Positions 36,600 to 48,942 are shown, counted from the first letter of the stretch. The stretch is 55,613 nucleotides of DNA from a virus (IMGVR_UViG_2744054912_000007); one strand, 5' to 3'. The notes: generated by a model not told the origin, from the sequence alone. Numbers and translations are program-made.

Positions 36600-38010
36600 G
36601 ATATGCACTCAACCGAATCGATCTTGGTTTCAATCTTTTTTATCGGGATCAGGCTTCTTTTTAGGTAACTTCGGGGGCTTAACTTGCTGATGACTTTGCG
36701 TTCGGCGCGTAAGCCAGGGATGGTCAGCTTTAGGTTTAACATAGTATTTTGAGCGTAAATCAATACGGGCATTATCCACTCGTTCATGGACACTCTTTTC
36801 ATCATCCAGTGGTATAGGCTCCGGGCCATCAACATACTTTTCCCAGCCCAGCGCTTTCCCGTCATACAGAACGTTAATTTCACCGTCAAAGTTCTCGCAT
36901 ACAGTAACAACCGAATGCCTAAGTCGATATCCCCGGCTCTCACTGCGTACCTGAAACGCACTGCTTTTGTACTGGAAAGTGAGATTTTTAGACAGAACGC
37001 GCTTCGCCTGTAGGCTGAAGATATAACCCAGTTCCTCTTCAGAATGGTGCACATCAAGATGAGCATTATCAGTAGTACGAGGCGACGTAGCGAACCGGTT
37101 GTTATAGGCTTCAATAAAGGTCGGCAACCATGCATTTGCTGTTTCAATATCACTGATATTCTGAAGCCGCATTTCTTTGACCAGCCTGTCCTGTAGTGTC
37201 TGATTGGCGCGCTCTACCCGCCCTTTTGCCTGCGGGCTGTTGGCATGGATTGGCTCGATGCCCAGTGTCTTTATCGCACGAGTGAACTGGGTCAGCTCAC
37301 CTTCCCGCTCTGGGTTATTTACCCTGAATATACTGTGTCTATCAGAGTAGAGAGCGAGCGGTACGCCATGATCATTAAGGTAACCCCGGAGGGTTTCCAT
37401 GTAAGCCCGGGTTGTTTCAGCAGGCACAAAACGCAACGCCATCAACGCACTGGTGGCATCATCAATGAAAACGATCAGTGTACATCTGGGGCCTCGATTT
37501 TCAAACCAGTCATGAGGTGAGCCATCAATCTGGATCAGTTCACCGTAAGATGGTCGTCGCATGCGGCGTTGATATATACGGGCAATTTTACGACGGCGTT
37601 CACGCCATAACCCCTCTTCTATCATCCACTTTCTGAGAGTTTCAACGGATAAAGATAAACCGTGTATCTCGCGCAATTTTTCGCACGCAAACGTAGGTCC
37701 AAAATCAGCGTAACGGCCTTTGAGGAGTGAAATTACTGTTGCTCTGAATTCAGTAGAAAAGGAATTATTAGGACGCTTTCCACGTCGGTGGGAAACCAGA
37801 CCAGAAGGCCCTTCATTTCTATACCGTTGCACCAGACGTTTAACCTGCCGAATAGAAATGCCAATGCGTGCCGCAGCTTGTTCCTGAGTAATATGTCGAT
37901 TAATTGACTCCTGAATAATCTGAAGTCGGTGGAGTTCCTTATGACTCATCGTAACAGTCTCTTTGATCATGAAAAATCCCCCAGAGAATTGTCTGGGGAC
38001 ATTTTAGAAT
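36600..38010 (-). mobile_element. Insertion sequence (boundaries approximate)
   Basis: Single transposase ORF with a terminator-like hairpin (CCCCAGA-gaattg-TCTGGGG) just upstream of its start. Terminal inverted repeats could not be identified by eye, so the ends are uncertain. Confidence 0.35.
36630..37970 (-). CDS. DDE (rve-type) transposase with N-terminal HTH, ISNCY/IS481-like (446 aa)
   Basis: HTH (QEQAAARIGISIRQVKRL) and a DDE triad context (LIQIDGS ... YSDRHSIF ... KGRVERANQTL). Confidence 0.8.
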   Translation of the reverse strand: MIKETVTMSHKELHRLQIIQESINRHITQEQAAARIGISIRQVKRLVQRYRNEGPSGLVSHRRGKRPNNSFSTEFRATVISLLKGRYADFGPTFACEKLREIHGLSLSVETLRKWMIEEGLWRERRRKIARIYQRRMRRPSYGELIQIDGSPHDWFENRGPRCTLIVFIDDATSALMALRFVPAETTRAYMETLRGYLNDHGVPLALYSDRHSIFRVNNPEREGELTQFTRAIKTLGIEPIHANSPQAKGRVERANQTLQDRLVKEMRLQNISDIETANAWLPTFIEAYNNRFATSPRTTDNAHLDVHHSEEELGYIFSLQAKRVLSKNLTFQYKSSAFQVRSESRGYRLRHSVVTVCENFDGEINVLYDGKALGWEKYVDGPEPIPLDDEKSVHERVDNARIDLRSKYYVKPKADHPWLTRRTQSHQQVKPPKLPKKKPDPDKKD

Positions 38011-38766
38011 GGTTCAAAGGGGACATTACAGCTTGGTGTTAACAATAGCCTGCTTCTCCTTGCCTTCCGGCGCGTAAGAGGCTAACCTACATGTGCAAAG
38101 CATGAAATTGGCCTCAGATTAATGTTAAGCGTCTTGCCGGACGCGTAATGTTATCTGGGGCTTTTCTCTATCTGCCTTTGGTGTTCATGCCTGAGGCAGA
38201 TAGCCTCAAGCACCCGCAGCAATTCTACTTAACTCCCGTCACCTCGCCAATATAAAATCAATCAGAAAGGCGATCCATAAGAACAACAGCAAGACAATAA
38301 ATTGCCATTACAGCCGCAATAGCTAGCGCACATTTGAGAACCAGCACGACAACCTCCTGTATTGGACGTACACCAGTTCTGATAAATATGAGGCTGTCTC
38401 ATCATTGATTCAATATAACTATTGGGTATAGTTTCTGTGATTTTGTTCTGTAGAAATGGAACACAACAACCAGTCACCACCAGCACTTCTTTAAATACGC
38501 CAAGTCCGACGCAAGCTAACCTTCTAGTCCGCTTTGAGCGAGGAGCGGACCAAACCCGGCCAACTGACTCTTAAAGGGGCCGCAGGAATTTTTCGTCTGA
38601 ACTTTCGAAGCTCCTCTCCCTGAAGACAGAAAACTTCTGTGTGCTGTGGGAATATTGAATCTTTGCCTTAGATATAAATAATTTTATCCCGCCTGAAGTT
38701 TACATTATTTTATTTATCTGTTTTTCTAAATCAGACTGCACTCCTTACTTAAATCAGGAGCCAGTC

Positions 38767-39966
38767 ATGCCATTTGTTATTTATGTGTTTACTATCAGTG
38801 CCTTTGCGCTCGGACTCGCGGAATTTGTCCCCATTGGGCTGACAGACGTTATGGCTCAGGGGTTGTGTGTGGGTGTGGAGCAGACCGGGGCAGCGGTTAC
38901 AACCTATGCACTGGGGGCAACGTTCGCGGCACCCGTACTGTCTGCGCTGACAGCAAGCTGGAGCCGGAAAAATGTAATGCTTACAACTGCCGTTGTGTTT
39001 ACTGCCGGTAGTCTGGCGGCCGCGTTTGCAGCCACATTACCTCAGCTCCTGTTAGCGCGGTTCATTGCTGGTCTGGGACACGGCCTGTTTCTGGCTGCGG
39101 CATCCAGTACCGCAGCTCGTCTTGCTGGACCGGGTAAAGCAGGCAGAGCGGTGGCTGTGGTATTTGGTGGCTTTACTCTGGCGATGGCAATCGGCGTACC
39201 GCTGAGTACATGGTTGGGGGGGGTGGTCTCATGGCGTCCAGTTCTCGGCGCTATTGCCGCTTTTGGCGCGTTCGGATTCCTTGGACTGTTGTTCGGTATG
39301 AAAGATCCCGTACGCAGCGTGCCCGGTGAACATAGTGACTCAGCAATGCAGAATATCGGCATGCTGTTTAACCGTAAGTTGCTGGCCGGCGCGCTGGTTA
39401 CGGTGCTGGCGTATGCAGGCTCGTTTACGGATTACACCTTTATCGCACCTATTCTGACGCAGGTGACAGGGGTTACCGGAGCAACGGTGAGTCTGTTTAT
39501 GCTGGTTTACGGTATTACAGCTGCGGTAGGTAATATTCTTGGTGGGAAACTTACCGACAGCATGGGGGTTAATCGTGCCAATATACTCATCATTAGCGGC
39601 ATTGTTGTTGTCGTGCTTGGTATGTGGCTGCTGTCATCCTCACCGGTGAGCATGGGCATTCTGGTTGCGCTGCTGGGTATGGTGACATTTGCCGCAGTGC
39701 CGGCACTGCAGGCCCGTCTGATTGGTGTCGCTGAGCAACATGCTCCTCATGCGCATGGTGTTGCTGCCGGCCTGAATATTGCGGGCTTCAACTCAGGTAT
39801 AGCGCTGGGATCAGTACTGGGCAGCATTACTATAAGCCACGCCGGTATCGTGTATACCGGTATCAGCGGTGCGATTGTTTCTCTGCTCGGCCTGCTGTTG
39901 CTGCTTGCACAAATCCGTCGCAGCCACAGTCGTAAATTTCAACAGGTTAAAATCGTAGGCCAGTAA
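38767..39966 (+). CDS. MFS transporter (12-TM, 399 aa)
   Basis: Multiple hydrophobic helices and Gly-rich MFS-type motifs; first gene of the co-directional MFS-ChaC-LysR block. Confidence 0.8.
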   Translation: MPFVIYVFTISAFALGLAEFVPIGLTDVMAQGLCVGVEQTGAAVTTYALGATFAAPVLSALTASWSRKNVMLTTAVVFTAGSLAAAFAATLPQLLLARFIAGLGHGLFLAAASSTAARLAGPGKAGRAVAVVFGGFTLAMAIGVPLSTWLGGVVSWRPVLGAIAAFGAFGFLGLLFGMKDPVRSVPGEHSDSAMQNIGMLFNRKLLAGALVTVLAYAGSFTDYTFIAPILTQVTGVTGATVSLFMLVYGITAAVGNILGGKLTDSMGVNRANILIISGIVVVVLGMWLLSSSPVSMGILVALLGMVTFAAVPALQARLIGVAEQHAPHAHGVAAGLNIAGFNSGIALGSVLGSITISHAGIVYTGISGAIVSLLGLLLLLAQIRRSHSRKFQQVKIVGQ

Positions 39967-39977
39967 AGGGAGGTTAT

Positions 39978-40670
39978 ATGCTTACCCGTGAAAATATGCT
40001 TAATGGCACATTTGTCAGGGTGCATGAAGCGCTGCTCCCGGCGAATATGCTCTGGGACGCTGAAAAAATACGCGCATCAATGAACTCTACTCTGGAGGAG
40101 CGCCCGACGGGTGCTCCTGTCTGGATATTTGCCTACGGGTCATTGATGTGGAATCCCGTGCTGGCGATTGAAGAAATGCAACGGGCCCGTCTGAAAGGAT
40201 GGCAGCGCAGTTTCTGCATTCGTTTGATATCCGGACGAGCGACTCCTGATGTCCCCGGCAGGATGTTATCGCTCGACGAAGGTGGAATTACCGAAGGTAT
40301 TGCGTTCAGACTGCCGGAATCGACTCTTATTAATGAGCTGGAAATTGTCTGGACGCGCGAGATGATAACCGGTCTTTACCGTCCGGTCTGGGCAGACGTT
40401 TCGCTAGGAAACGGTGAGGAAATTCAGGCGCTGGCTTTCGTATCAGACAGACTGCATCCGCATTATGAACAGGACAATCTTACAGCGACCGTAGCGTTGA
40501 GCATCGCATCTGCCCGTGGAGACATTGGCACGAATGCAGATTATGTATGGAAACTGCAGGCCACTCTGGGTGCGTTGGGAATACGGGATGATTACGTGAG
40601 TGAACTGGCCCTTGCTCTGCATGAGGCTCCCTGTAACGATAAACTTCATCAGCGAGGTGCTTCACTATGA
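39978..40670 (+). CDS. ChaC-like gamma-glutamylcyclotransferase (230 aa)
   Basis: VWIFAYGSLMWNP motif and overall resemblance to E. coli ChaC as recalled. Confidence 0.75.
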   Translation: MLTRENMLNGTFVRVHEALLPANMLWDAEKIRASMNSTLEERPTGAPVWIFAYGSLMWNPVLAIEEMQRARLKGWQRSFCIRLISGRATPDVPGRMLSLDEGGITEGIAFRLPESTLINELEIVWTREMITGLYRPVWADVSLGNGEEIQALAFVSDRLHPHYEQDNLTATVALSIASARGDIGTNADYVWKLQATLGALGIRDDYVSELALALHEAPCNDKLHQRGASL

Positions 40671-41548
40671 GCCATCTGAGCCATCTGCGAACGTTTCTTG
40701 AGGCCTATCGCTCTGGCTCCTTTTCAAAGGCGGCAGAACTACTGGGCATCACTCAGCCCGCGGCGTCACAGCATATCCAGTCTCTTGAGACTCTGGTTGG
40801 TAAGCGTCTGTTTATCAGGCAGGCCAGAGGCGTGACGGCAACCGAAGCTGCGGATGAGCTTGCCCGCTCAGTTTCACCCTTCATTGATGGTCTGGAAGAA
40901 AAGCTGTCCTCTTTCCGGTCAGGCTCTGTACGCGGGGGAACAATTAATCTGGCAGGACCGCCAGATTTTATTCATTCCCGGCTTGGGACAGTAATGGCTC
41001 CACTAATGAAGGAGGGGTATCGCCTACGCTTTCATACCGGCAATAAGCAACGTATTTATTCCCTTTTGCATGACGGGAGCGCCGATCTCGCTGTTACCGC
41101 ATCTATGCCTGATGACCGTCTGTACGGCTATGCACATCTACTGACTGAACGCATGCTCCTTGTTCATGCTCCCGCCATGTCAGAGATCATCGGATCAGAA
41201 CCTGGTGCTGAAACGCTTGCCTCATTACCGCTGATTGCTTATGACGAAGAGTTGCCACTGATTAGAGCGCTCTGGGCCTCCATGTTTCAGAGAGCCCCTG
41301 AGATGCAGGCTACATTCACCATTCCGGATTTACGTATTATCCGCGACTTGGTCTGTGACGGCCACGGGTGGACAGTGCTGCCGGATTATCACTGTGACAA
41401 TGACCTGAAAAGTGGTCGCCTGATTTCAGTGACACCTGCAGACCTCGCTCCGACTAATCATCTTTATCTGGTCTGGAACAAAAGGACGGCTAATAACAGC
41501 CGAACCGCCTATGTTCGGGATTACATTCTTAAAACGTTTCCGCGTTGA
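40667..41548 (+). CDS. LysR-family transcriptional regulator (293 aa)
   Basis: N-terminal HTH (LRTFLEAYRSGSFSKAAELLGITQPAASQHIQSLE) and a C-terminal substrate-binding domain; overlaps the ChaC stop by 4 nt. Confidence 0.85.
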   Translation: MSHLSHLRTFLEAYRSGSFSKAAELLGITQPAASQHIQSLETLVGKRLFIRQARGVTATEAADELARSVSPFIDGLEEKLSSFRSGSVRGGTINLAGPPDFIHSRLGTVMAPLMKEGYRLRFHTGNKQRIYSLLHDGSADLAVTASMPDDRLYGYAHLLTERMLLVHAPAMSEIIGSEPGAETLASLPLIAYDEELPLIRALWASMFQRAPEMQATFTIPDLRIIRDLVCDGHGWTVLPDYHCDNDLKSGRLISVTPADLAPTNHLYLVWNKRTANNSRTAYVRDYILKTFPR

Positions 41549-41678
41549 TGTTTGAAACGGATGATTGGCGATGCGTATCATAAGTTACGTATGTCCGCTT
41601 CTGGCACAAAGCAGACGCCCACTCTCACGCGAATGCTTTGCCCTTGACTTGCCAACAACCGTATCGCTTGCTCCGCAA

Positions 41679-42971
41679 CTATGGTTTTTTATTAGAATCT
41701 TCGCCACTAAATAAATTATAATAAATTGATTTTATTAGATATCTGTCAGAATCTATATGGTCAGCACGAGTAGCATGCTCTAATGTTTCAAATGCTAGGG
41801 TTTGTGCGGCTTCAGCAAAAATTCCAGGCCAACCCTTACTCAGCATCGACAGTCCTTTAAGTACCCTTATCTGAATTTCCCTCATACTGGCACCATCGCG
41901 CGCAACAGGTGAGAAAAAGTCTTCAAGTAGATCGTTATTCTGAAGTGGTGCAACATGTACAGAAGGATATTTCACTTCTATTTCATCAGATTTATTCTGC
42001 GCGTAAGCGGAAAGTATACGTACACCTCTGCCAATGACATCAATGGCGGTTCCAGGATCGTTCACTGCGGGGGAAAGGGCTCGGCAGGCTATTTCGGCCA
42101 TGACGCTAAGACAAAATCGGGGGTCCTGAGCAAATGAACGTACATCCGAGACAATAATCGTCTCAAGTAAATCGGTGCTGATTGATGACTCCTGGCCCTG
42201 ACTCAGGTACAAAACTGGCGTGGACGGATGTATGAAACTGCCCGGCTGCGCCACGAGGTATACATGACGGGGATCATTGGTCAGCAGCTTGCTGAGTTTC
42301 ACCATATCAACATATTCAACATAGCCAATCTTTTTCGGATAAACTGCAACCGTTCCTTTCGGCTGTTCATTGTTCTCAAGCCATGGATATCCGCCGAGAC
42401 AGGGATTTCTTGCTCTCGCAATAAATGTTTCGATGGCCGCCTGTTCTACTTTTGCCGTTGTCTCACCAACCCTCCCCAGAGAGGTCAAATGCTGTATCCA
42501 GCGAAGCAATGTGATGAGGATTAAGGCAATGACAACCAGTGTTACAATGAATAAAATGACTCTCCCCCTTTCTCCATAAGCTCCCATATTGAGGGCAATA
42601 ATCCCTACCAGACTGAAGAGAAAAGAACCGATGAAGGTGGCCAGTACATTTTGTGTGGTGACGTCTTCAACAACTAAACGAGTAGCTCTGGGAGTCACAT
42701 TAGTAGTGGCTGAACCGTAGGCTGTGACCATGATGCTCAGCGAAAATGTGGTCACTGCCAGCATACTCGATGCCAGTATGTTCAGAATGTTATCGACTGC
42801 TTCCGCACCAACCTTCACGGAAACCGACTCAGGTATCATTGATTTAAAAAGAATTGATAAAAGGGCCGTTATTATTGCGACAATTGCGAATAACGTTGCC
42901 CTGAACCATAGTTTTTTAAATGTCTGCTTCAGCATCCATTTCCAGCGTGAAATCATTCTGCATTCCCTCAT
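41679..42971 (-). CDS. DUF2254-like membrane protein (430 aa)
   Basis: N-terminal multi-TM region and a soluble C-terminal domain; downstream of, and apparently co-transcribed with, the BCCT gene. Confidence 0.55.
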   Translation of the reverse strand: MRECRMISRWKWMLKQTFKKLWFRATLFAIVAIITALLSILFKSMIPESVSVKVGAEAVDNILNILASSMLAVTTFSLSIMVTAYGSATTNVTPRATRLVVEDVTTQNVLATFIGSFLFSLVGIIALNMGAYGERGRVILFIVTLVVIALILITLLRWIQHLTSLGRVGETTAKVEQAAIETFIARARNPCLGGYPWLENNEQPKGTVAVYPKKIGYVEYVDMVKLSKLLTNDPRHVYLVAQPGSFIHPSTPVLYLSQGQESSISTDLLETIIVSDVRSFAQDPRFCLSVMAEIACRALSPAVNDPGTAIDVIGRGVRILSAYAQNKSDEIEVKYPSVHVAPLQNNDLLEDFFSPVARDGASMREIQIRVLKGLSMLSKGWPGIFAEAAQTLAFETLEHATRADHIDSDRYLIKSIYYNLFSGEDSNKKP

Positions 42972-43019
42972 ATTGCAGCCGGGATAAATAAATGCCGCCT
43001 CTGTGGCGGCATGTTGCTG

Positions 43020-45023
43020 TTAACGAACCAGATGCAGGAAGTGCAGGTGTTTTTCGTACTGGTCCAGTATGTCATTAATCAGCTGTTCCTGATTCCAGCC
43101 CATTACATCATAATTTTGGCCGCCCTCTTTGAGATAGACTTCAGCGCGATAATATCGATGTTGTTCACTCTGCTGCTCATCATTATCCAGCGCAGCGAGC
43201 GCGAAGGTCGGTGAGTTATACCCGCGAAGCCTCACTTCATATATATAATTCAGCTCGTTGCCCAAATCGACTTCAAGGCGAATACGATCCTCGGCGGCGT
43301 CACTGATGTGGCTTATCGTTCCCTGCTTGTTAAGTTCCTCCTGAACCAGCGTCATGGCGGGTTGGATAATGTCGTCCATAAAACGTTTCACAAGAGAGCG
43401 CTTCGGCAAATACGCGATATTGCGTAACCTTCTCTGCCAGGGAATTGGGTTACGTGCAGCCGTAGGAGCAATAGTCGCCATGCTAAGGCTTTCACGCTTG
43501 GTCAAATCCCGACGCAGGGCTTTTAACAGTCCGTATATGGATATTAATAAGATAACTGAGAAGGGCAATGCACTCGCTATCGTTACGGTTTGCAACGCAC
43601 TCAGCCCCCCTGCGATCAGCAGGGCAATAGCAACAACGCCCATGAGCGATGCCCAGAAAATTCGCTGCCAGACGGGCGTGTTTGCCACCCCACCTGATGC
43701 CAGAGTATCCACAACCATTGCCCCCGAATCAGCAGACGTTACAAAGAAGACGATGACCATCGCCATTGCAATGAATGACAGCACGGAAGAGAACGGGAAA
43801 TGCTCCAGGAAATTAAACAGGGCAAGCGCAACATCCTGCTGAACGGTATTGGCGAGGTCAGTGGCGCCCTGGTTCATGATGAGATAGATGGCGCTGTTTC
43901 CAAACACCGTCATCCACATGAGCGTAAAGCCGGCGGGAACAAACAACACGCCAGTCACGAACTCACGAATTGTCCTGCCGCGGGAAACGCGTGCAATGAA
44001 CATACCTACAAACGGCGACCATGAAAGCCACCATCCCCAGTATAATAATGTCCAGCCCCCCAGCCAGTTGCTCGACTTGGGTTCATACGCGTAAAGGTTG
44101 AACGTTTTACTCACCAGTTCCGACAGATAACCACCCGTATTTTCCACAAATGACTTCAGCAGAAGCACAGTGGGACCCAGGCACAAGACCAGCGCCAGGA
44201 GCAACACCGCCAGGCCCAGATTAAGCTCAGACAGGATGCGTATTCCCTTGTCCAGGCCGGACACCACCGAAATCGTCGCTAACCCCGTGATGACCACGAT
44301 CAAAATGACCTGTACCGTTTCATTGATGGGCACGCCGAAAAGATGGTTCAAACCGGCATTCACCTGCAATACACCGTAACCCAGCGATGTTGCAACGCCA
44401 AAGACAGTGCCTATCACGGCGAAGATATCAACCGCGTGGCCTATAGGCCCGTAAATGCGATCGCCGATAATGGGATAGAGCGCAGAACGCAGCGTTAAAG
44501 GCAGACCGTGACGGTAACTGAAAAAGGCCAGAATCAGCGCCACGATGGCATAAATTGCCCATGCGTGCAGACCCCAGTGGAAGAACGTCAGGCGCATGGC
44601 TTCCTTCGCTGCCGCAACGGTCTCTGGAGTGCCGACAGGTGGCGAAAGATAATGCATCACAGGTTCGGCAACGCCAAAGAACATCAGGCCGATCCCCATC
44701 CCTGCCGAAAAAAGCATCGCGAACCAGGAGTGGTAGCTGAAATCAGGCTGCGCATGGTCTGGGCCCAGCTTTATATCACCGTAACGTGAGAGTCCAAGGA
44801 ACGTGACGCTCAGTAAAATCAGGGCCACAGCAAGTATGTAGAACCAGCTGGCATTCGTGAAGATTTGTTGCTGAAGTAGTTTAAAATTTTTGTCGGCGAC
44901 ATCCGGGAATACGGCGGCAAAGGCGACAAGAAGGAAAATTAGCAAAGCAGATGTAAAGAATACCGCTTTGTTAATCTGGCTTGTAGACTTCTTTGGGGTT
45001 GTATCATTTTCACTCATAATCAT
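43020..45023 (-). CDS. BCCT-family (betaine/choline/carnitine) transporter, BetT-like (667 aa)
   Basis: 12-TM core with a Trp-rich BCCT signature region (WTLLYWGWWLSWSPFVGMFIARVSRGRTIREF) and a long cytoplasmic C-terminal tail as in BetT. Confidence 0.8.
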   Translation of the reverse strand: MIMSENDTTPKKSTSQINKAVFFTSALLIFLLVAFAAVFPDVADKNFKLLQQQIFTNASWFYILAVALILLSVTFLGLSRYGDIKLGPDHAQPDFSYHSWFAMLFSAGMGIGLMFFGVAEPVMHYLSPPVGTPETVAAAKEAMRLTFFHWGLHAWAIYAIVALILAFFSYRHGLPLTLRSALYPIIGDRIYGPIGHAVDIFAVIGTVFGVATSLGYGVLQVNAGLNHLFGVPINETVQVILIVVITGLATISVVSGLDKGIRILSELNLGLAVLLLALVLCLGPTVLLLKSFVENTGGYLSELVSKTFNLYAYEPKSSNWLGGWTLLYWGWWLSWSPFVGMFIARVSRGRTIREFVTGVLFVPAGFTLMWMTVFGNSAIYLIMNQGATDLANTVQQDVALALFNFLEHFPFSSVLSFIAMAMVIVFFVTSADSGAMVVDTLASGGVANTPVWQRIFWASLMGVVAIALLIAGGLSALQTVTIASALPFSVILLISIYGLLKALRRDLTKRESLSMATIAPTAARNPIPWQRRLRNIAYLPKRSLVKRFMDDIIQPAMTLVQEELNKQGTISHISDAAEDRIRLEVDLGNELNYIYEVRLRGYNSPTFALAALDNDEQQSEQHRYYRAEVYLKEGGQNYDVMGWNQEQLINDILDQYEKHLHFLHLVR

Positions 45024-45357
45024 TTATTCCATTAATTAAATCCGCACTGGATAGAAGGTACTACCTCTCACAGAGTAGCAAAGTTCAACTGGCTATGCGG
45101 GGTTAATCGGAATGCATGGTGGAATGAGTGCCGATACAAATCATCCTATATTCTAAGGAGTTTTAAGTTACTCAGCCTGCCAATTACTGGGGCATTTAAT
45201 TTGTATGATCTGTATCAAAGCTGGGATATAAGTTAAGTGAAGTATATTAGGCACGAATTACCAGCGTCTGCTCTTGGCACAAAGCGGACAACCACGCTAG
45301 CTCTACCCTGTGCCACAAAATGTCAATTTGCATCTGAACTAATGCACTTTAATCTCG

Positions 45358-45780
45358 TCACTTCAATAAATACCGAACATCCCCCTGATAAAACGACAAT
45401 ATGCGCTGCATAACTTCGCTCTTCCGGCACTCGCGACAGATTATGTTTAGGCGACTGTCGTAGCGACGTATTTCTCCGTCAGGTAATGACCAGATAAGGT
45501 CCGGATCAACCACAACCGGTTTCTTCAGCTTTGCCCTCGATAATTTTTTGCGGGCATTTTGCCAGTCTTTACGAGCCTGTTCAGACGGGAATAACCCGTA
45601 GCCAGAATTGTATACATCGCCACTGGCAACCAGCTCTCTGGCCAGAACGCTCATCAGATATCTTGTTGCCCCAGTTTTAGCTTCCAGTTGTCGTAACGTC
45701 TCGCGCCCACTCTGGCGTACGAGTTCAAGAACCTGCCCTTTAATTTTTTCCCGCTCTTCTTGTGTAAAAACTTTTGCCAC
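45358..45780 (-). CDS. Hypothetical protein, possible winged-helix DNA-binding (140 aa)
   Basis: ORF downstream of the O-like gene in the early-right operon; no Walker motif, so it is not a DnaC/P-type helicase loader. Confidence 0.4.
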   Translation of the reverse strand: MAKVFTQEEREKIKGQVLELVRQSGRETLRQLEAKTGATRYLMSVLARELVASGDVYNSGYGLFPSEQARKDWQNARKKLSRAKLKKPVVVDPDLIWSLPDGEIRRYDSRLNIICRECRKSEVMQRILSFYQGDVRYLLK

Positions 45781-45820
45781 AAGCCCTCCTGAAAATTACC
45801 TCATGACCAGAAATTAACAC

Positions 45821-46627
45821 TTACCCCCTGAAGCCCGGCGGAATTTCGTTATCCGGTTCAGAAATATGATTCACACAACGCTGGTTGTTCGTGCCGCTTA
45901 CCGGGAGCAACCAGGGGTTCTCAAAATTCCGGTCCGGTCCAAAAAACGTCGTCGCTCGCTGAACAAATTCCGTTCCCGTTTTCCCGGTAGCCGCCAAGTA
46001 TCTTGCGTAACGCCTCACGCCATCCAGCATGGCCTCTGGTGGCACCCCCTCGCGTAATCTGGCCTTCCAGGCACTGAAAGCGGATTTCTTCGGGTTTGCC
46101 CCAGCACGCAACGGGTACTCCCGCCAGACCTGTTCGAACACATCCGGATAATCCACTCGTCCCACAGACTGCCCGGTGTTTTCCGGGACTACCCGATCGG
46201 TTTCCCGCTGAATGGCGGAATCGGCTTCAGGCTGCTGCAGTTGGTGTGATTGCTCCGCCCTTGCGGTCATCACCTGCTGCACAGCGCCCGAATCGGCTTT
46301 CAGCGCATACGCTGAATCGGCTTCCGGTGTCGTGCCTGCTGGCTGACCAAGATTGACGGTCTGAACATCCCCTGCCTGGTTCGTGGCGTTTTTTACGCCA
46401 TGGACCATAGTGTTTTGATCTTCTTGATCTGTATCTTTATCTGTATCTTTATCTGTCGTGACTCGTCGTGACATGTGCGTGACATTTCGTGACGCGCTCA
46501 CCAGGAGGTGGATATACACTGCCATCACTGTTGCAATTGGCTGTCCTGACACCCTGGCAATTGTTCGCCACTTAGGGTCATTTGGCATGTCATGCCATAA
46601 TCTGAGCCAGGCGTTAGCCATACTCAC
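45821..46627 (-). CDS. Replication initiator-like protein (YdaU/DUF1376-like, lambda O analogue)
   Basis: Position after the Cro-like and CII-like genes; contains internal iteron-like DNA repeats in its coding sequence as lambda O does. Confidence 0.55.
   Translation of the reverse strand: MSMANAWLRLWHDMPNDPKWRTIARVSGQPIATVMAVYIHLLVSASRNVTHMSRRVTTDKDTDKDTDQEDQNTMVHGVKNATNQAGDVQTVNLGQPAGTTPEADSAYALKADSGAVQQVMTARAEQSHQLQQPEADSAIQRETDRVVPENTGQSVGRVDYPDVFEQVWREYPLRAGANPKKSAFSAWKARLREGVPPEAMLDGVRRYARYLAATGKTGTEFVQRATTFFGPDRNFENPWLLPVSGTNNQRCVNHISEPDNEIPPGFRG
46420..46500 (-). repeat. Iteron-like tandem repeats (candidate replication origin) inside the O-like gene
   Basis: ATCTGTATCTTT twice, then four CGTGAC-ending units at 10-12 bp periodicity (ATCTGTCGTGAC, TCGTCGTGAC, ATGTGCGTGAC, ATTTCGTGAC). 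Confidence 0.5.
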
Positions 46628-46692
46628 CTCTTTTGATACCGAATCTTTTTACTCACAAATTGCCGGAAGTGATCCGGTATGAATATTGCGAG

Positions 46693-47118
46693 TCAATGCA
46701 CAGCCACAATATTTCCTGCAGGGCCACCACGATTCATCTGGTTGAAACCAGCGATCGCCACTGCGACAAAATCATCAGCGTCTCTCACCAGTCGTTCCCG
46801 CGTCTCCACTAGTTCCCGAAAATAGGCTGAGCTATGGCTGCGCATTCGGGCCACCAGCAGAGGTGGCATTGCTTTTTCGATAGCTGGTAACAACGCCTGA
46901 ATTTTTTCAACTGCATCAGGGGTGTCTTTCTCTACCCAGCGGAAAATTTTCTGGGTATTGCGAGCCAGGGCTTCCGGATGGCTGTCGTCATACAGTTCTG
47001 GGAACGTCATACCCAGTTCAAAATAAGCCCTGGTTATTTCAGCTGCCGGAACTTTTTCACCGTCCGGATGCGCCCAGGCATTCATCGCCATGCGGATGTG
47101 TTCATGCTTGATTTTCAT
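46693..47118 (-). CDS. YdaT-like protein (CII-like position), 141 aa
   Basis: Second gene of the early-right operon; overlaps the Cro-like gene stop; same order as Rac ydaS-ydaT. Confidence 0.5.
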   Translation of the reverse strand: MKIKHEHIRMAMNAWAHPDGEKVPAAEITRAYFELGMTFPELYDDSHPEALARNTQKIFRWVEKDTPDAVEKIQALLPAIEKAMPPLLVARMRSHSSAYFRELVETRERLVRDADDFVAVAIAGFNQMNRGGPAGNIVAVH

Positions 47119-47383
47119 GAATCAAGCTCCTAGAAAGTGGTTGTGTTAACATTTTGGTATCTTCCAGCTCGGGCCAAATATTCATCCAATCAAAAGGCCT
47201 TAGTTGCTGACGTGTAACTTCACCATTACTGGCTCGCTCAATAAGGACACATAACGATGCCCCTAACACTTGACCTTTACTCAATGCCTTTCTTAGATAA
47301 CCGATGCTGGTACCACACTCGCATGCAAACATACGCTGTTCATCTGACGAAAGAGAATTGAGAAATATTCTTAATTCTTCCAT
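47102..47383 (-). CDS. Cro-like HTH regulator (YdaS-like), 93 aa
   Basis: Divergent from the repressor gene across an operator-rich 100-bp region; contains an HTH-like segment (CGTSIGYLRKALSKGQ). Confidence 0.6.
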   Translation of the reverse strand: MEELRIFLNSLSSDEQRMFACECGTSIGYLRKALSKGQVLGASLCVLIERASNGEVTRQQLRPFDWMNIWPELEDTKMLTQPLSRSLIHENQA

Positions 47384-47414
47384 AGCTACTCCTTAGTAAA
47401 CACAGCAAAGAATA

Positions 47415-47487
47415 CCCATAGGTAAACAAAAGTCAATACCCACAGGTTGTTTACCTTGCAGTAATCGCATCTATTATTTACCTATGG
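47415..47487. promoter_or_regulatory. Immunity-region operator repeats between the Cro-like and repressor genes
   Basis: Nested inverted repeats CCATAGGTAAACA ... TGTTTACC ... TTTACCTATGG; the last overlaps the repressor start codon. Confidence 0.55.
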
Positions 47488-47903
47488 ACAAATATGAATT
47501 TAGACGACAGCAACTCATCAAAATTCGTGATGAGAAATGCGATGGTAAAGCGGTTAACGTGGCCAGAAAGATCGGGCGCGAGCCTTCTTATGTATCAAGA
47601 ATGTTGTACCCAGAGGGGAAAAAGGGAAAAAAACGGATCGCTGATGATATGGTGGAGATTATCGAAGAGTCCTTTGGGTTACCCCGGGGATGGATGGATG
47701 GTATCGTTTCATCATCAACGAACACAGCCTCCAGTTATGAAACAAGGGTTCTAACGCCACGACAACGTATTTTTTTAGATCTCTTAGACGAACTGCCAGA
47801 AAGTGAAGCGGATAACTTATTAAAAACTCTTGAAGAGAAAAAACAGTATTACAATATGATCTACGAAGAAATCCGTAAAAAGAAAGCACAAAACGCATCA
47901 TAG
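47484..47903 (+). CDS. Prophage repressor (RacR-like position), 139 aa
   Basis: Divergently transcribed from the Cro-like gene; probable HTH (AVNVARKIGREPSYVSRMLY); no S24 peptidase domain recognisable. Confidence 0.6.
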   Translation: MDKYEFRRQQLIKIRDEKCDGKAVNVARKIGREPSYVSRMLYPEGKKGKKRIADDMVEIIEESFGLPRGWMDGIVSSSTNTASSYETRVLTPRQRIFLDLLDELPESEADNLLKTLEEKKQYYNMIYEEIRKKKAQNAS

Positions 47904-47947
47904 CTCACCAAACAACTAGTCACCAGTTAAGACACCGCAAAAAGTTA

Positions 47948-47980
47948 CCCATGGGTATTTACTTTTTAAATACCTATGGG
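47948..47980. promoter_or_regulatory. Second operator-like palindrome downstream of the repressor gene (OL/PL-like)
   Basis: CCCATGGGTATTTACTTTTTAAATACCTATGGG, sharing the CCATAGGTA / TACCTATGG half-site with the repeats at 47415-47487. Confidence 0.5.
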
Positions 47981-48156
47981 TATCCTTCTTTTCATACCAA
48001 CCCACCCCGCCCCACAGAATGCAGGGCAATACTCGAGTTACCAGGCAGTGGTCAGGGGTTAAGTAGCCAGCCCGAGGCGTAAGAACATGACGGCGGGATT
48101 CAAATTTTGCAGTGCAGCAGTTAGTTCCGCCACCCGGCGTTAAGGGGAGAGATAAG

Positions 48157-48291
48157 ATGGTGCATTACGAAGTAGTTCAGTATTTGATGGATTGTTGCGG
48201 TATCACTTACAACCAGGCTGTGCAGGCTTTACGCAGCAACGACTGGGATCTCTGGCAGGCAGAAGTCGCTATACGTAGCAACAAGATGTGA
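48157..48291 (+). CDS. ydaG: YdaG-like small protein (44 aa)
   Basis: Hand-translated ORF (MVHYEVVQYLMDCCGITYNQAVQALRSNDWDLWQAEVAIRSNKM) with an AAGGGGAGAG SD; the length matches Rac YdaG. Confidence 0.55.
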   Translation: MVHYEVVQYLMDCCGITYNQAVQALRSNDWDLWQAEVAIRSNKM

Positions 48292-48301
48292 GATTCGCAA
48301 A

Positions 48302-48457
48302 ATGCAAAAAATCGACCTCGGCAACAACGAATCCCTGGTGTGCGGCGTGTTCCCCAACCAGGATGGAACGTTCACTGCCATGACGTATACCAAAAGCAAA
48401 ACATTTAAAACCGAAACTGGTGCGCGCCGATGGTTGGAGAAGCACACAGTAAGCTAA
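48302..48457 (+). CDS. ydaF: YdaF-like small protein (51 aa)
   Basis: Hand-translated ORF (MQKIDLGNNESLVCGVFPNQDGTFTAMTYTKSKTFKTETGARRWLEKHTVS); the length matches Rac YdaF. Confidence 0.55.
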   Translation: MQKIDLGNNESLVCGVFPNQDGTFTAMTYTKSKTFKTETGARRWLEKHTVS

Positions 48458-48942
48458 CGATTAAAACGTCTACTCCTGCTGTTCCAGAATAACTTCATAA
48501 AATGGGAGTATTTTTCGGTGACGAGATAATAAGAACAGTTTGCGCTATCACTCTGATGTTGAATGATGCCCTTCCGTTCTAATTTTTTCATAACCAGGTT
48601 ACGGCAAGGAGAAGTGATAATAAGATTTCCTGTTTTAAGGAAATCTTTAAATACAGCGATTTCTTTCTCAGATAAACGAAGCAATACTCGTTGCTCTGGT
48701 AGTAATGAATAATGCTTTTGAATATGTGCTCGCAATCTTGAGAAGGAAATGGCGACCACGAAAGAAAAGGCAAAAACGATAATCTGAAAGAGCCAAGGTA
48801 TTTCAGTATAAGCATTGAATGCGACAGTAAACTCTTTCGGTATCAGCCAGAGAGTGAGACCAAAAATGATAATCGTATACATAAGTCTTTCGAGTGGCTC
48901 GTTAGCAAAAAGTTTCAACAATGGAGTAAATACATCCAACAT
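48454..48942 (-). CDS. sieB: Superinfection exclusion protein B (SieB-like), 162 aa
   Basis: Two N-terminal TM helices and a soluble C-terminus; the position between the repressor and the kil region matches Rac/lambda sieB. The start is taken at the internal Met MLDVFTPLL...; the track ORF extends to 49065. Confidence 0.6.
   Translation of the reverse strand: MLDVFTPLLKLFANEPLERLMYTIIIFGLTLWLIPKEFTVAFNAYTEIPWLFQIIVFAFSFVVAISFSRLRAHIQKHYSLLPEQRVLLRLSEKEIAVFKDFLKTGNLIITSPCRNLVMKKLERKGIIQHQSDSANCSYYLVTEKYSHFMKLFWNSRSRRFNR

Follow-up and report, generated by a model that had tools for sequence, protein, structure and literature searches.

Replication origins that lie inside initiator genes are a classic theme of bacteriophage lambda, in which ori comprises iterons in the linker-coding part of gene O, an AT-rich region and an inverted repeat. 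Phage SPP1 encodes its own loader and helicase. A passage of PMC7466680 deals with the iterons in lambda O. In Escherichia coli, an origin that is active but kept under repression, oriJ, has been reported in the Rac prophage (PMC3945230), and the C-terminal domain of DnaT forms filaments on single-stranded DNA and contacts PriA and PriB (PMC13377028). Our searches of the literature on Rac and oriJ, replisome organizers and lambdoid iterons, whose coverage was incomplete, revealed no description of the initiator family that is the subject of this work.

The locus lies in a stretch of viral DNA of 55,613 nucleotides (IMGVR_UViG_2744054912_000007), referred to in full as the window. Its surroundings form the immunity/replication region of a variant Rac prophage that is inserted beside ttcA and carries intR, xisR, recET, kilR and sieB. 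K-12 Rac (ydaU-ydaV, oriJ) has the same backbone and the same attachment site beside ttcA. In phage Rac-SA53, the N-terminal sequence of YdaU differs and has no GTCACG clusters, and the next gene is ydaV, whose product bears the annotation of a replication protein. The window carries a replacement immunity/replication module, with the following genes:

47484-47903, plus strand: repressor-like gene, facing the Cro/YdaS-like gene.
47102-47383, opposing the repressor-like gene: Cro/YdaS-like gene.
46693-47118: CII/YdaT-like gene, followed by the initiator gene and then the DUF977 gene.
45821-46621, minus strand: phage replisome organizer (initiator) gene, internally deleted, encoding 266 amino acids against 356 in the intact protein.
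45358-45780, minus strand: DUF977 or 'Ren-like' gene (Pfam PF06163, E 2e-28; phrog_142).

The DUF977 gene starts 40 bp downstream of the initiator gene with nothing loader-like in between, and an Rfam search of positions 45000-48500 gave no match. Divergent pairs of sigma-70-like hexamers, which are consensus matches in the arrangement expected of an immunity switch, are present at 47409-47477 in the 100-bp gap between the Cro/YdaS-like and repressor-like genes. The replication module is separated from the prophage late genes by a cargo island (about 36900-45023) containing an ISEsa1 transposase remnant, an MFS transporter, a gamma-glutamylcyclotransferase, a LysR regulator, DUF2254 and a BetT-like BCCT transporter; past the island lie flxA, ydfV, relBE, hokD, a lysis cassette, trkG and the terminase genes. 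This reading of the island and the late genes relies on how the near-identical E. coli 2017.03.02CC is annotated.

The initiator reading frame runs on the minus strand from an ATG at 46621 to a stop at 45821, with an alternative GTG two codons upstream at 46627. Its product matches phrog_3729 ('replication initiation protein') with an E-value of 8e-184, in two stretches that leave profile positions of roughly 50-132 as a gap, and intact copies bear the RefSeq name 'phage replisome organizer'. No Pfam family was matched by the window protein at E <= 0.01, nor by the intact protein at E <= 0.1 except for a weak match to HTH_Crp_2. When both proteins were searched, no Pfam or NCBIfam model matched the N-terminal domain; this includes Pfam Phage_rep_org_N, so that comparison with the SPP1 G38P/DnaD-type N-domain yielded no sequence-level match. 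Homology to lambda O (Pfam Phage_rep_O) was likewise ruled out for want of a Pfam match, and we conclude that the initiator is not an O homologue.

Intact alleles of this gene contain two clusters of GTCACG boxes, A and B, 270 bp apart. With these as reference, the features of the window allele, in gene order, are:

46487-46621, minus strand: codons 1-45, the surviving N-terminal helices of the DNA-binding domain.
46477-46497, minus strand: 21-bp stretch GCGCGTCACGAAATGTCACGC, the cross-over site of the deletion, present once each in clusters A and B of intact alleles.
46457-46493, minus strand: hybrid iteron array of four GTCACG boxes, with its promoter-proximal part from cluster A and its distal part from cluster B.
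46410-46456, minus strand: AT-rich run after the last box (ACAGATAAAGATACAGATAAAGATACAGATCAAGAAGATCAAAAC), a candidate DNA-unwinding element.
46377-46407, strand unassigned: imperfect inverted repeat with 13-nt arms and a 5-nt loop, just past the AT-rich run.
46215-46327, minus strand: PEADSA repeat family, three in-frame GAAGCCGATTCAGC-like copies in the disordered linker.
45824-46162, minus strand: region resembling the DnaT C-terminal domain (residues about 154-266 of the window protein), ending in the tail SEPDNEIPPGFRG.

On the gene strand the four boxes occupy 46488-46493, 46478-46483, 46467-46472 and 46457-46462 (reading CGTGAC on the plus strand), at a spacing of 10, 11 and 10 bp, or about one box per helical turn. 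Over the whole window the hexamer shows no enrichment (23 occurrences versus 19.9 expected), and about 1.6e-6 clusters of four boxes on the same strand within 37 bp are expected in it by chance. Three 12-bp units follow at 46422-46457 (TCTTGATCTGTA, TCTTTATCTGTA and TCTTTATCTGTC), which are in frame, AT-rich and encode DKDTDKDTD; GC content falls to 0.31-0.33 at 46400-46459, and stands at 0.31 over 46410-46457, versus 0.55 for the whole gene. The original prediction had described six tandem units of 10-12 bp inside an initiator-like gene. Because the clustering is far beyond chance and coincides with a local drop in GC, we regard the repeats as real, but they are of two kinds, four boxes and three 12-bp units. 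The latter fall within the AT-rich run, together with two GATC (Dam) sites at 46417-46420 and 46426-46429, 9 bp apart. This pair belongs to the E. coli version of the run, with no obvious conservation in relatives from other genera.

When the gene was aligned with its counterparts in E. coli SLK172 and phage Tritos, the window allele proved to carry an in-frame deletion of 270 bp (90 codons), such that residues 46-135 of the intact protein are absent. Cluster A (gene nt 129-165; GCGC-GTCACG-AAAT-GTCACG-CGAG-GTCACA-TTGAT-GTCACG, with an inverted CGTGAC at nt 192) spans codons 43-66 of the N-terminal domain, comprising four GTCACG-type boxes and one inverted box within what is predicted to be winged-helix coding sequence. 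Cluster B (nt 389-435) lies in the linker directly ahead of the AT-rich run, with five GTCACG boxes followed immediately by ACAGATAAAGATACAGATAAAGATACAGATC. As read from the alignment, the junction shows that recombination between the identical 21-bp stretches fused A and B into a single four-box array, to which the AT-rich run remains attached. The best database matches cover the window gene but extend over 270 bp more, and positions 30700-55613 otherwise match E. coli 2017.03.02CC at 100.0% identity, the latter having the additional 270 bp. A second site of instability is provided by the PEADSA repeats: the common 324-residue initiator variants in the databases lack exactly the 32 residues between two of them. 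From these variants and the window deletion it follows that in-frame deletions mediated by repeats arise readily at two sites in the gene. Shorter proteins of the 90% cluster (283, 280, 262 and 298 aa) were considered as further iteron-mediated deletions and proved to be N-terminal truncations instead.

At least 17 public draft contigs, drawn from several independent samples and pipelines, encode exactly this 266-residue protein, in every case within the Rac/BCCT context; GCA_001641555.1 is one of the carriers. The 90% cluster of the intact protein has 5786 members. The deletion junction was present in one piece in none of 5426 closed E. coli genomes, about 1000 of which possess a near-identical two-cluster region (median two matching places each). 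All carriers are draft or short-read assemblies, as would be anticipated if the deletion were an assembly artefact. However, the exact repeat shared by the two clusters measures just 21 bp, too short to collapse in the graphs of k = 31 or larger that such assemblers use. The same junction occurs, moreover, both in NCBI submitters' assemblies and in the Logan assemblies of ERR1622595, SRR27314657 and SRR19137809, and one contig was seen in 16 samples. An artefact is accordingly very unlikely and, given the number of contigs and the diversity of samples and pipelines, the allele is taken as real, rare and clonally inherited.

Relatives of the N-terminal domain were collected from 36 genomes representing Escherichia, Shigella, Serratia, Bordetella, Pseudomonas, Acidovorax, Chromobacterium, Marinobacter and Sphingomonas. 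The two-cluster layout is found in nearly all of them, with boxes at about nt 129, 139, 149 and 160, often an inverted copy at about nt 192, and a cluster B of three to five boxes at about nt 387-430 that precedes a (GATAAA/GATACA)n run; its range extends from Escherichia as far as Bordetella, Pseudomonas, Acidovorax and Sphingomonas. The most frequent hexamer immediately ahead of the AT-rich run, picked without a prior, is GTCACG at most loci, GTAACG at four and of the CGAACG type at three, and in each case the cluster-B hexamer recurs two to six times in cluster A of its own gene. Where the loop that cluster A specifies in the protein contains insertions, these consist of extra boxes (loci L008, L031, L026, L029, L030 and L037). 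A scan of viral contigs for the pattern alone (three boxes at 10-bp spacing) recovered at least 120 loci; among the matches listed, 78 lie in genes with the N-terminal signature of the family and in 83 a pair of clusters is separated by 240-341 nt, the modal distances being 260 and 281.

Five loci have no boxes in either cluster. Two of these, from a Serratia metagenome-assembled genome (L039) and a Pantoea sp. (L041), carry an inserted segment (YVYYVATTDGDVVRVGISRNPWARCKDLK...) in place of the usual linker, which we take to resemble a GIY-YIG/T5orf172-type domain. A further variation is seen in phage HannyBb (L005:2940-3905), whose initiator combines an unrelated N-terminal domain with the same C-terminal tail and has an array of its own: five GGTCAAAATG-type repeats about 23 bp apart (nt 352-445), then three 12-bp units containing ACAGAGA. 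DUF977 follows this initiator directly, with no loader within the 5.5-kb region.

Repeats within a coding sequence might simply encode a low-complexity peptide linker. The 12-bp units are indeed in frame and specify DKDT repeats, and both cluster B and the AT-rich run fall in the region predicted to be disordered. The boxes behave differently: in cluster A, which encodes part of a folded domain, the hexamer is used in all three reading frames (x-S-R, V-T and xGT-H-Gxx), giving S-R, V-T and C/G-H dipeptides, so a repeated peptide cannot explain it. Synonymous sites are frozen. Third-codon positions of the cluster-A boxes are conserved at 0.92, against 0.54 outside (Mann-Whitney p 1.3e-6), as calculated over 18 GTCACG-type genes with a mean pairwise third-position identity of 0.46 and with conserved degenerate codons as the comparator. 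In addition, the two clusters change box sequence together. These patterns argue that the boxes are DNA signals, constrained as DNA and not as peptide.

The same may be said of the AT-rich run. In 28 relatives its mean GC content is 0.29, against 0.55 for the genes, and in five genes of 60-68% GC it remains at 0.19-0.33. Aspartate codons within the run are almost exclusively GAT (GAT:GAC 83:3 versus 274:310 elsewhere; p 2e-21) and lysine codons predominantly AAA (AAA:AAG 68:9 versus 228:207 elsewhere; p 6e-10), high-GC hosts included. For these counts the run was defined by position alone, as the 36 nt immediately downstream of the final cluster-B box; defining it by the GATAAA pattern biases the result, and the positional definition gives the same codon bias. 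Persistence of GAT and AAA even in high-GC genes points to selection at the level of DNA for an AT-rich run with purine bias on the sense strand, as needed in an unwinding element. A purely coding role for the repeats is therefore extremely unlikely. The original prediction had allowed for such a role with no AT-rich element nearby; what we find is that the boxes lie in different frames and that an AT-rich run adjoins them, the 12-bp units alone encoding a repetitive peptide. Recurrent layout, co-variation of the boxes, frozen synonymous sites and persistence of the AT-rich run together support an iteron origin of the lambda kind. The lambda-like candidate origin put forward earlier is thus supported in its DNA anatomy, but the gene that contains it is no O homologue.

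Whether the inverted repeat past the run belongs to the origin is uncertain, as a stem at the comparable position exceeds shuffled sequences in only 6 of 22 relatives. On the plus strand, 46377-46407 reads as a terminator-like hairpin of 13 pairs, seven of them G-C, followed by T-rich sequence complementary to the AT-rich run; three terminator-like sites were found in the region, with 2.1 expected. The hairpin could stop antisense transcription from entering the origin, or it could be a coincidence.

To place the boxes within the protein, the intact initiator was modelled with AF2 from 35 sequences (mean pLDDT 62, high in both domains). The model of the N-terminal domain predicts helices at residues 2-11, 16-25 and 29-45, a loop at 46-55 encoded by cluster A, helices at 56-63 and 67-77, a hairpin at 78-87 and a basic helix at 110-126. 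Residues 128-243 are predicted to form a disordered linker, encoded by cluster B, the AT-rich run and the PEADSA repeats, and residues 244-332 are the confidently modelled C-terminal domain. A Foldseek search of the PDB returned no significant match; the weak matches were all to winged-helix regulators. The C-terminal domain was identified by a profile of 35 homologues, which aligned with the DnaT C-terminal domain in the PDB (6aep, E 1.3e-8; 2ru8, E 1.5e-6; 9zbt, E 4.9e-6). Positions 156-179 of the NCBIfam DnaT model NF002770 match the C-terminal tail, and pLDDT in the DnaT-like region as a whole is about 90.

Mapped onto this model, the deletion would take away everything from the loop, through both helices and the wing, to the basic helix, and would fuse 45 N-terminal residues to the linker and C-terminal domain. 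Since the predicted winged-helix core and basic helix are both lost, a working initiator is most likely absent. It is possible in principle that the window allele still functions, the 45 N-terminal residues with linker and C-terminal domain, or some other start or partner, being sufficient. The deletion is in frame, the open reading frame and the DnaT-like domain are intact, four boxes and the AT-rich run remain, and some relatives have only three cluster-B boxes. Nevertheless, the 90 lost residues include the two helices, the hairpin and the basic helix, which exceed the rest of the N-terminal domain in conservation and in confidence of the model. Carriers are also few, with at least 17 contigs known against 5786 members of the intact cluster and none among 5426 closed genomes. 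We consider continued function quite improbable.

The boxes could instead be operators, or autoregulatory or copy-control ('handcuffing') sites, serving the initiator or another phage regulator, with the true origin elsewhere. Cluster A and the inverted box occur early in a transcribed gene, where bound protein could block transcription, and clusters separated by about 260 bp could form a repression loop. Such functions are compatible with an origin and the two are not mutually exclusive. As the sole role, regulation is less readily reconciled with cluster B, which is always joined to a strand-biased AT-rich run kept against codon bias, a feature that is typical of unwinding elements and for which an operator has no obvious use. 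The GTCACG clusters of the whole Tritos genome are limited to the two in the initiator gene. In lambda ori, SPP1 oriL and RepA_N plasmids, repeats within the gene constitute the origin, which also counts against an operator. A purely regulatory function therefore seems improbable.

Taken together, we consider it likely that an iteron origin of two parts lay within the initiator gene of this Rac prophage variant, that the array is its scar, and that the deletion orphaned the origin core. The similarity of the modelled N-terminal domain to winged helices also counts in favour of this reading. In the window, then, the origin is probably orphaned and the initiator decapitated. The original prediction had proposed that the prophage may hold an origin it can no longer fire autonomously, on the grounds of a missing loader gene. 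That the prophage has lost the ability to fire it unaided is likely right, but the probable cause is the loss of residues 46-135 and not the lack of a loader. Phage Tritos likewise has no loader: its full annotation lists neither a helicase nor a loader, it has an identical box region, and its replication module matches that of the Rac prophage variant. Yet Tritos is viable, having been spontaneously induced from E. coli LF82, plaqued on MG1655 hsdR-, propagated and imaged (PMC9928086). We conclude that the arrangement without a loader is native and workable. The order initiator-DUF977 is the same in the window, Tritos, E. coli SLK172 and several other deposited phage genomes, while across the initiator family the downstream partner genes vary widely. 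A DnaC-like gene is present in relatives with the same type of C-terminal domain (PhiR5_2 and L030), and the notion that the DnaT-like tail predicts the absence of a loader was thereby refuted. Varying partners, and the DnaC-like gene in some relatives, suggest mosaic exchange of modules.

A mechanism can be proposed for the intact system. The N-terminal winged-helix domain would bind the boxes head to tail, one per turn, on one face of the helix. Binding at cluster B, possibly aided by cluster A through looping, would open the adjoining AT-rich run, whereupon the DnaT-like domain could coat the exposed strand and/or engage the host PriA-PriB-DnaT restart pathway. Through this pathway host DnaB-DnaC might be loaded without a phage loader. 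In the window prophage the cis-acting core would be kept, firing only when an initiator of the same specificity is supplied in trans by a co-resident phage. The literature that we searched, with incomplete coverage, contained no binding, unwinding or replication assay for the initiator family, and matches in a plasmid collection were confined to records of at least about 150 kb or mislabelled chromosome-sized records, with no small replicon among them.

Two less orthodox readings deserve mention. One starts from cluster A, whose DNA, with boxes in all three reading frames, encodes a surface loop of the DNA-binding domain itself. The predicted recognition helix and wing (AMQGRVLDG...GW.KRQ, residues about 67-90) are almost invariant across loci L007-L041 despite their differing boxes, whereas the loop that the boxes encode and the basic helix that follows the wing vary among lineages with GTCACG, GTAACG and CGAACG. 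This constancy counts against the simple mechanism proposed above. With recognition helix and wing constant, the loop and basic helix could be what reads the boxes. The origin would then be self-referential, in that a change of iteron alters the protein segment that recognizes it. The second reading is a decoy allele: phages of the same specificity that superinfect the cell could be countered by the orphan array together with the truncated DnaT-like protein, by analogy with ectopic copies of ori-lambda, which act as decoys according to passages in PMC4488673 and PMC3349717. We grant these two readings an outside chance. A self-referential origin, if true, would provide a built-in route to new replication specificities.

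The initiator family occurs widely among proteobacterial prophages, and its arrays are present on many viral contigs. On our preferred reading of an orphaned origin core, the window allele represents a natural experiment in which recombination from iteron to iteron has parted the core from its initiator. It illustrates one route to replication-defective prophages and offers a cis-only substrate for complementation. For intact members, the DnaT-like domain could explain replication without a phage loader by means of the host restart machinery.

Among the described systems, the locus resembles lambda ori. In both, direct repeats bound by the initiator (predictedly so here) lie in the code for an inter-domain linker, a strand-biased AT-rich region follows downstream with an inverted repeat past it, and the gene is situated downstream of cro- and cII-like genes. 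Lambda differs in its palindromic iterons of about 19 bp, where this family has 6-bp cores every 10-11 bp. Unlike lambda O, the family has a second cluster in the code for the DNA-binding domain, no P- or DnaC-type loader in the window and a DnaT-like C-terminal domain. SPP1 oriL is located inside gene 38; in the present family a single gene contains the two box clusters, separated by about 260 bp. RepA_N initiators (pSK41 RepA, PDB 4pta) belong to Firmicute plasmids and possess a single repeat cluster, another C-terminal domain and no detectable sequence homology to the present family. With E. coli DnaT (primosomal protein I) the initiator shares a homologous C-terminal domain, including the terminal SEPDxxIPPGFRG motif, but in place of the N-terminal oligomerisation domain of DnaT it has a predicted iteron-binding domain and a long disordered linker. 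The family is thus distinguished from lambda, SPP1 and RepA_N by its short 6-bp boxes, by a second cluster over the code for DNA binding, and by a DnaT-like C-terminal domain in a loader-less setting.
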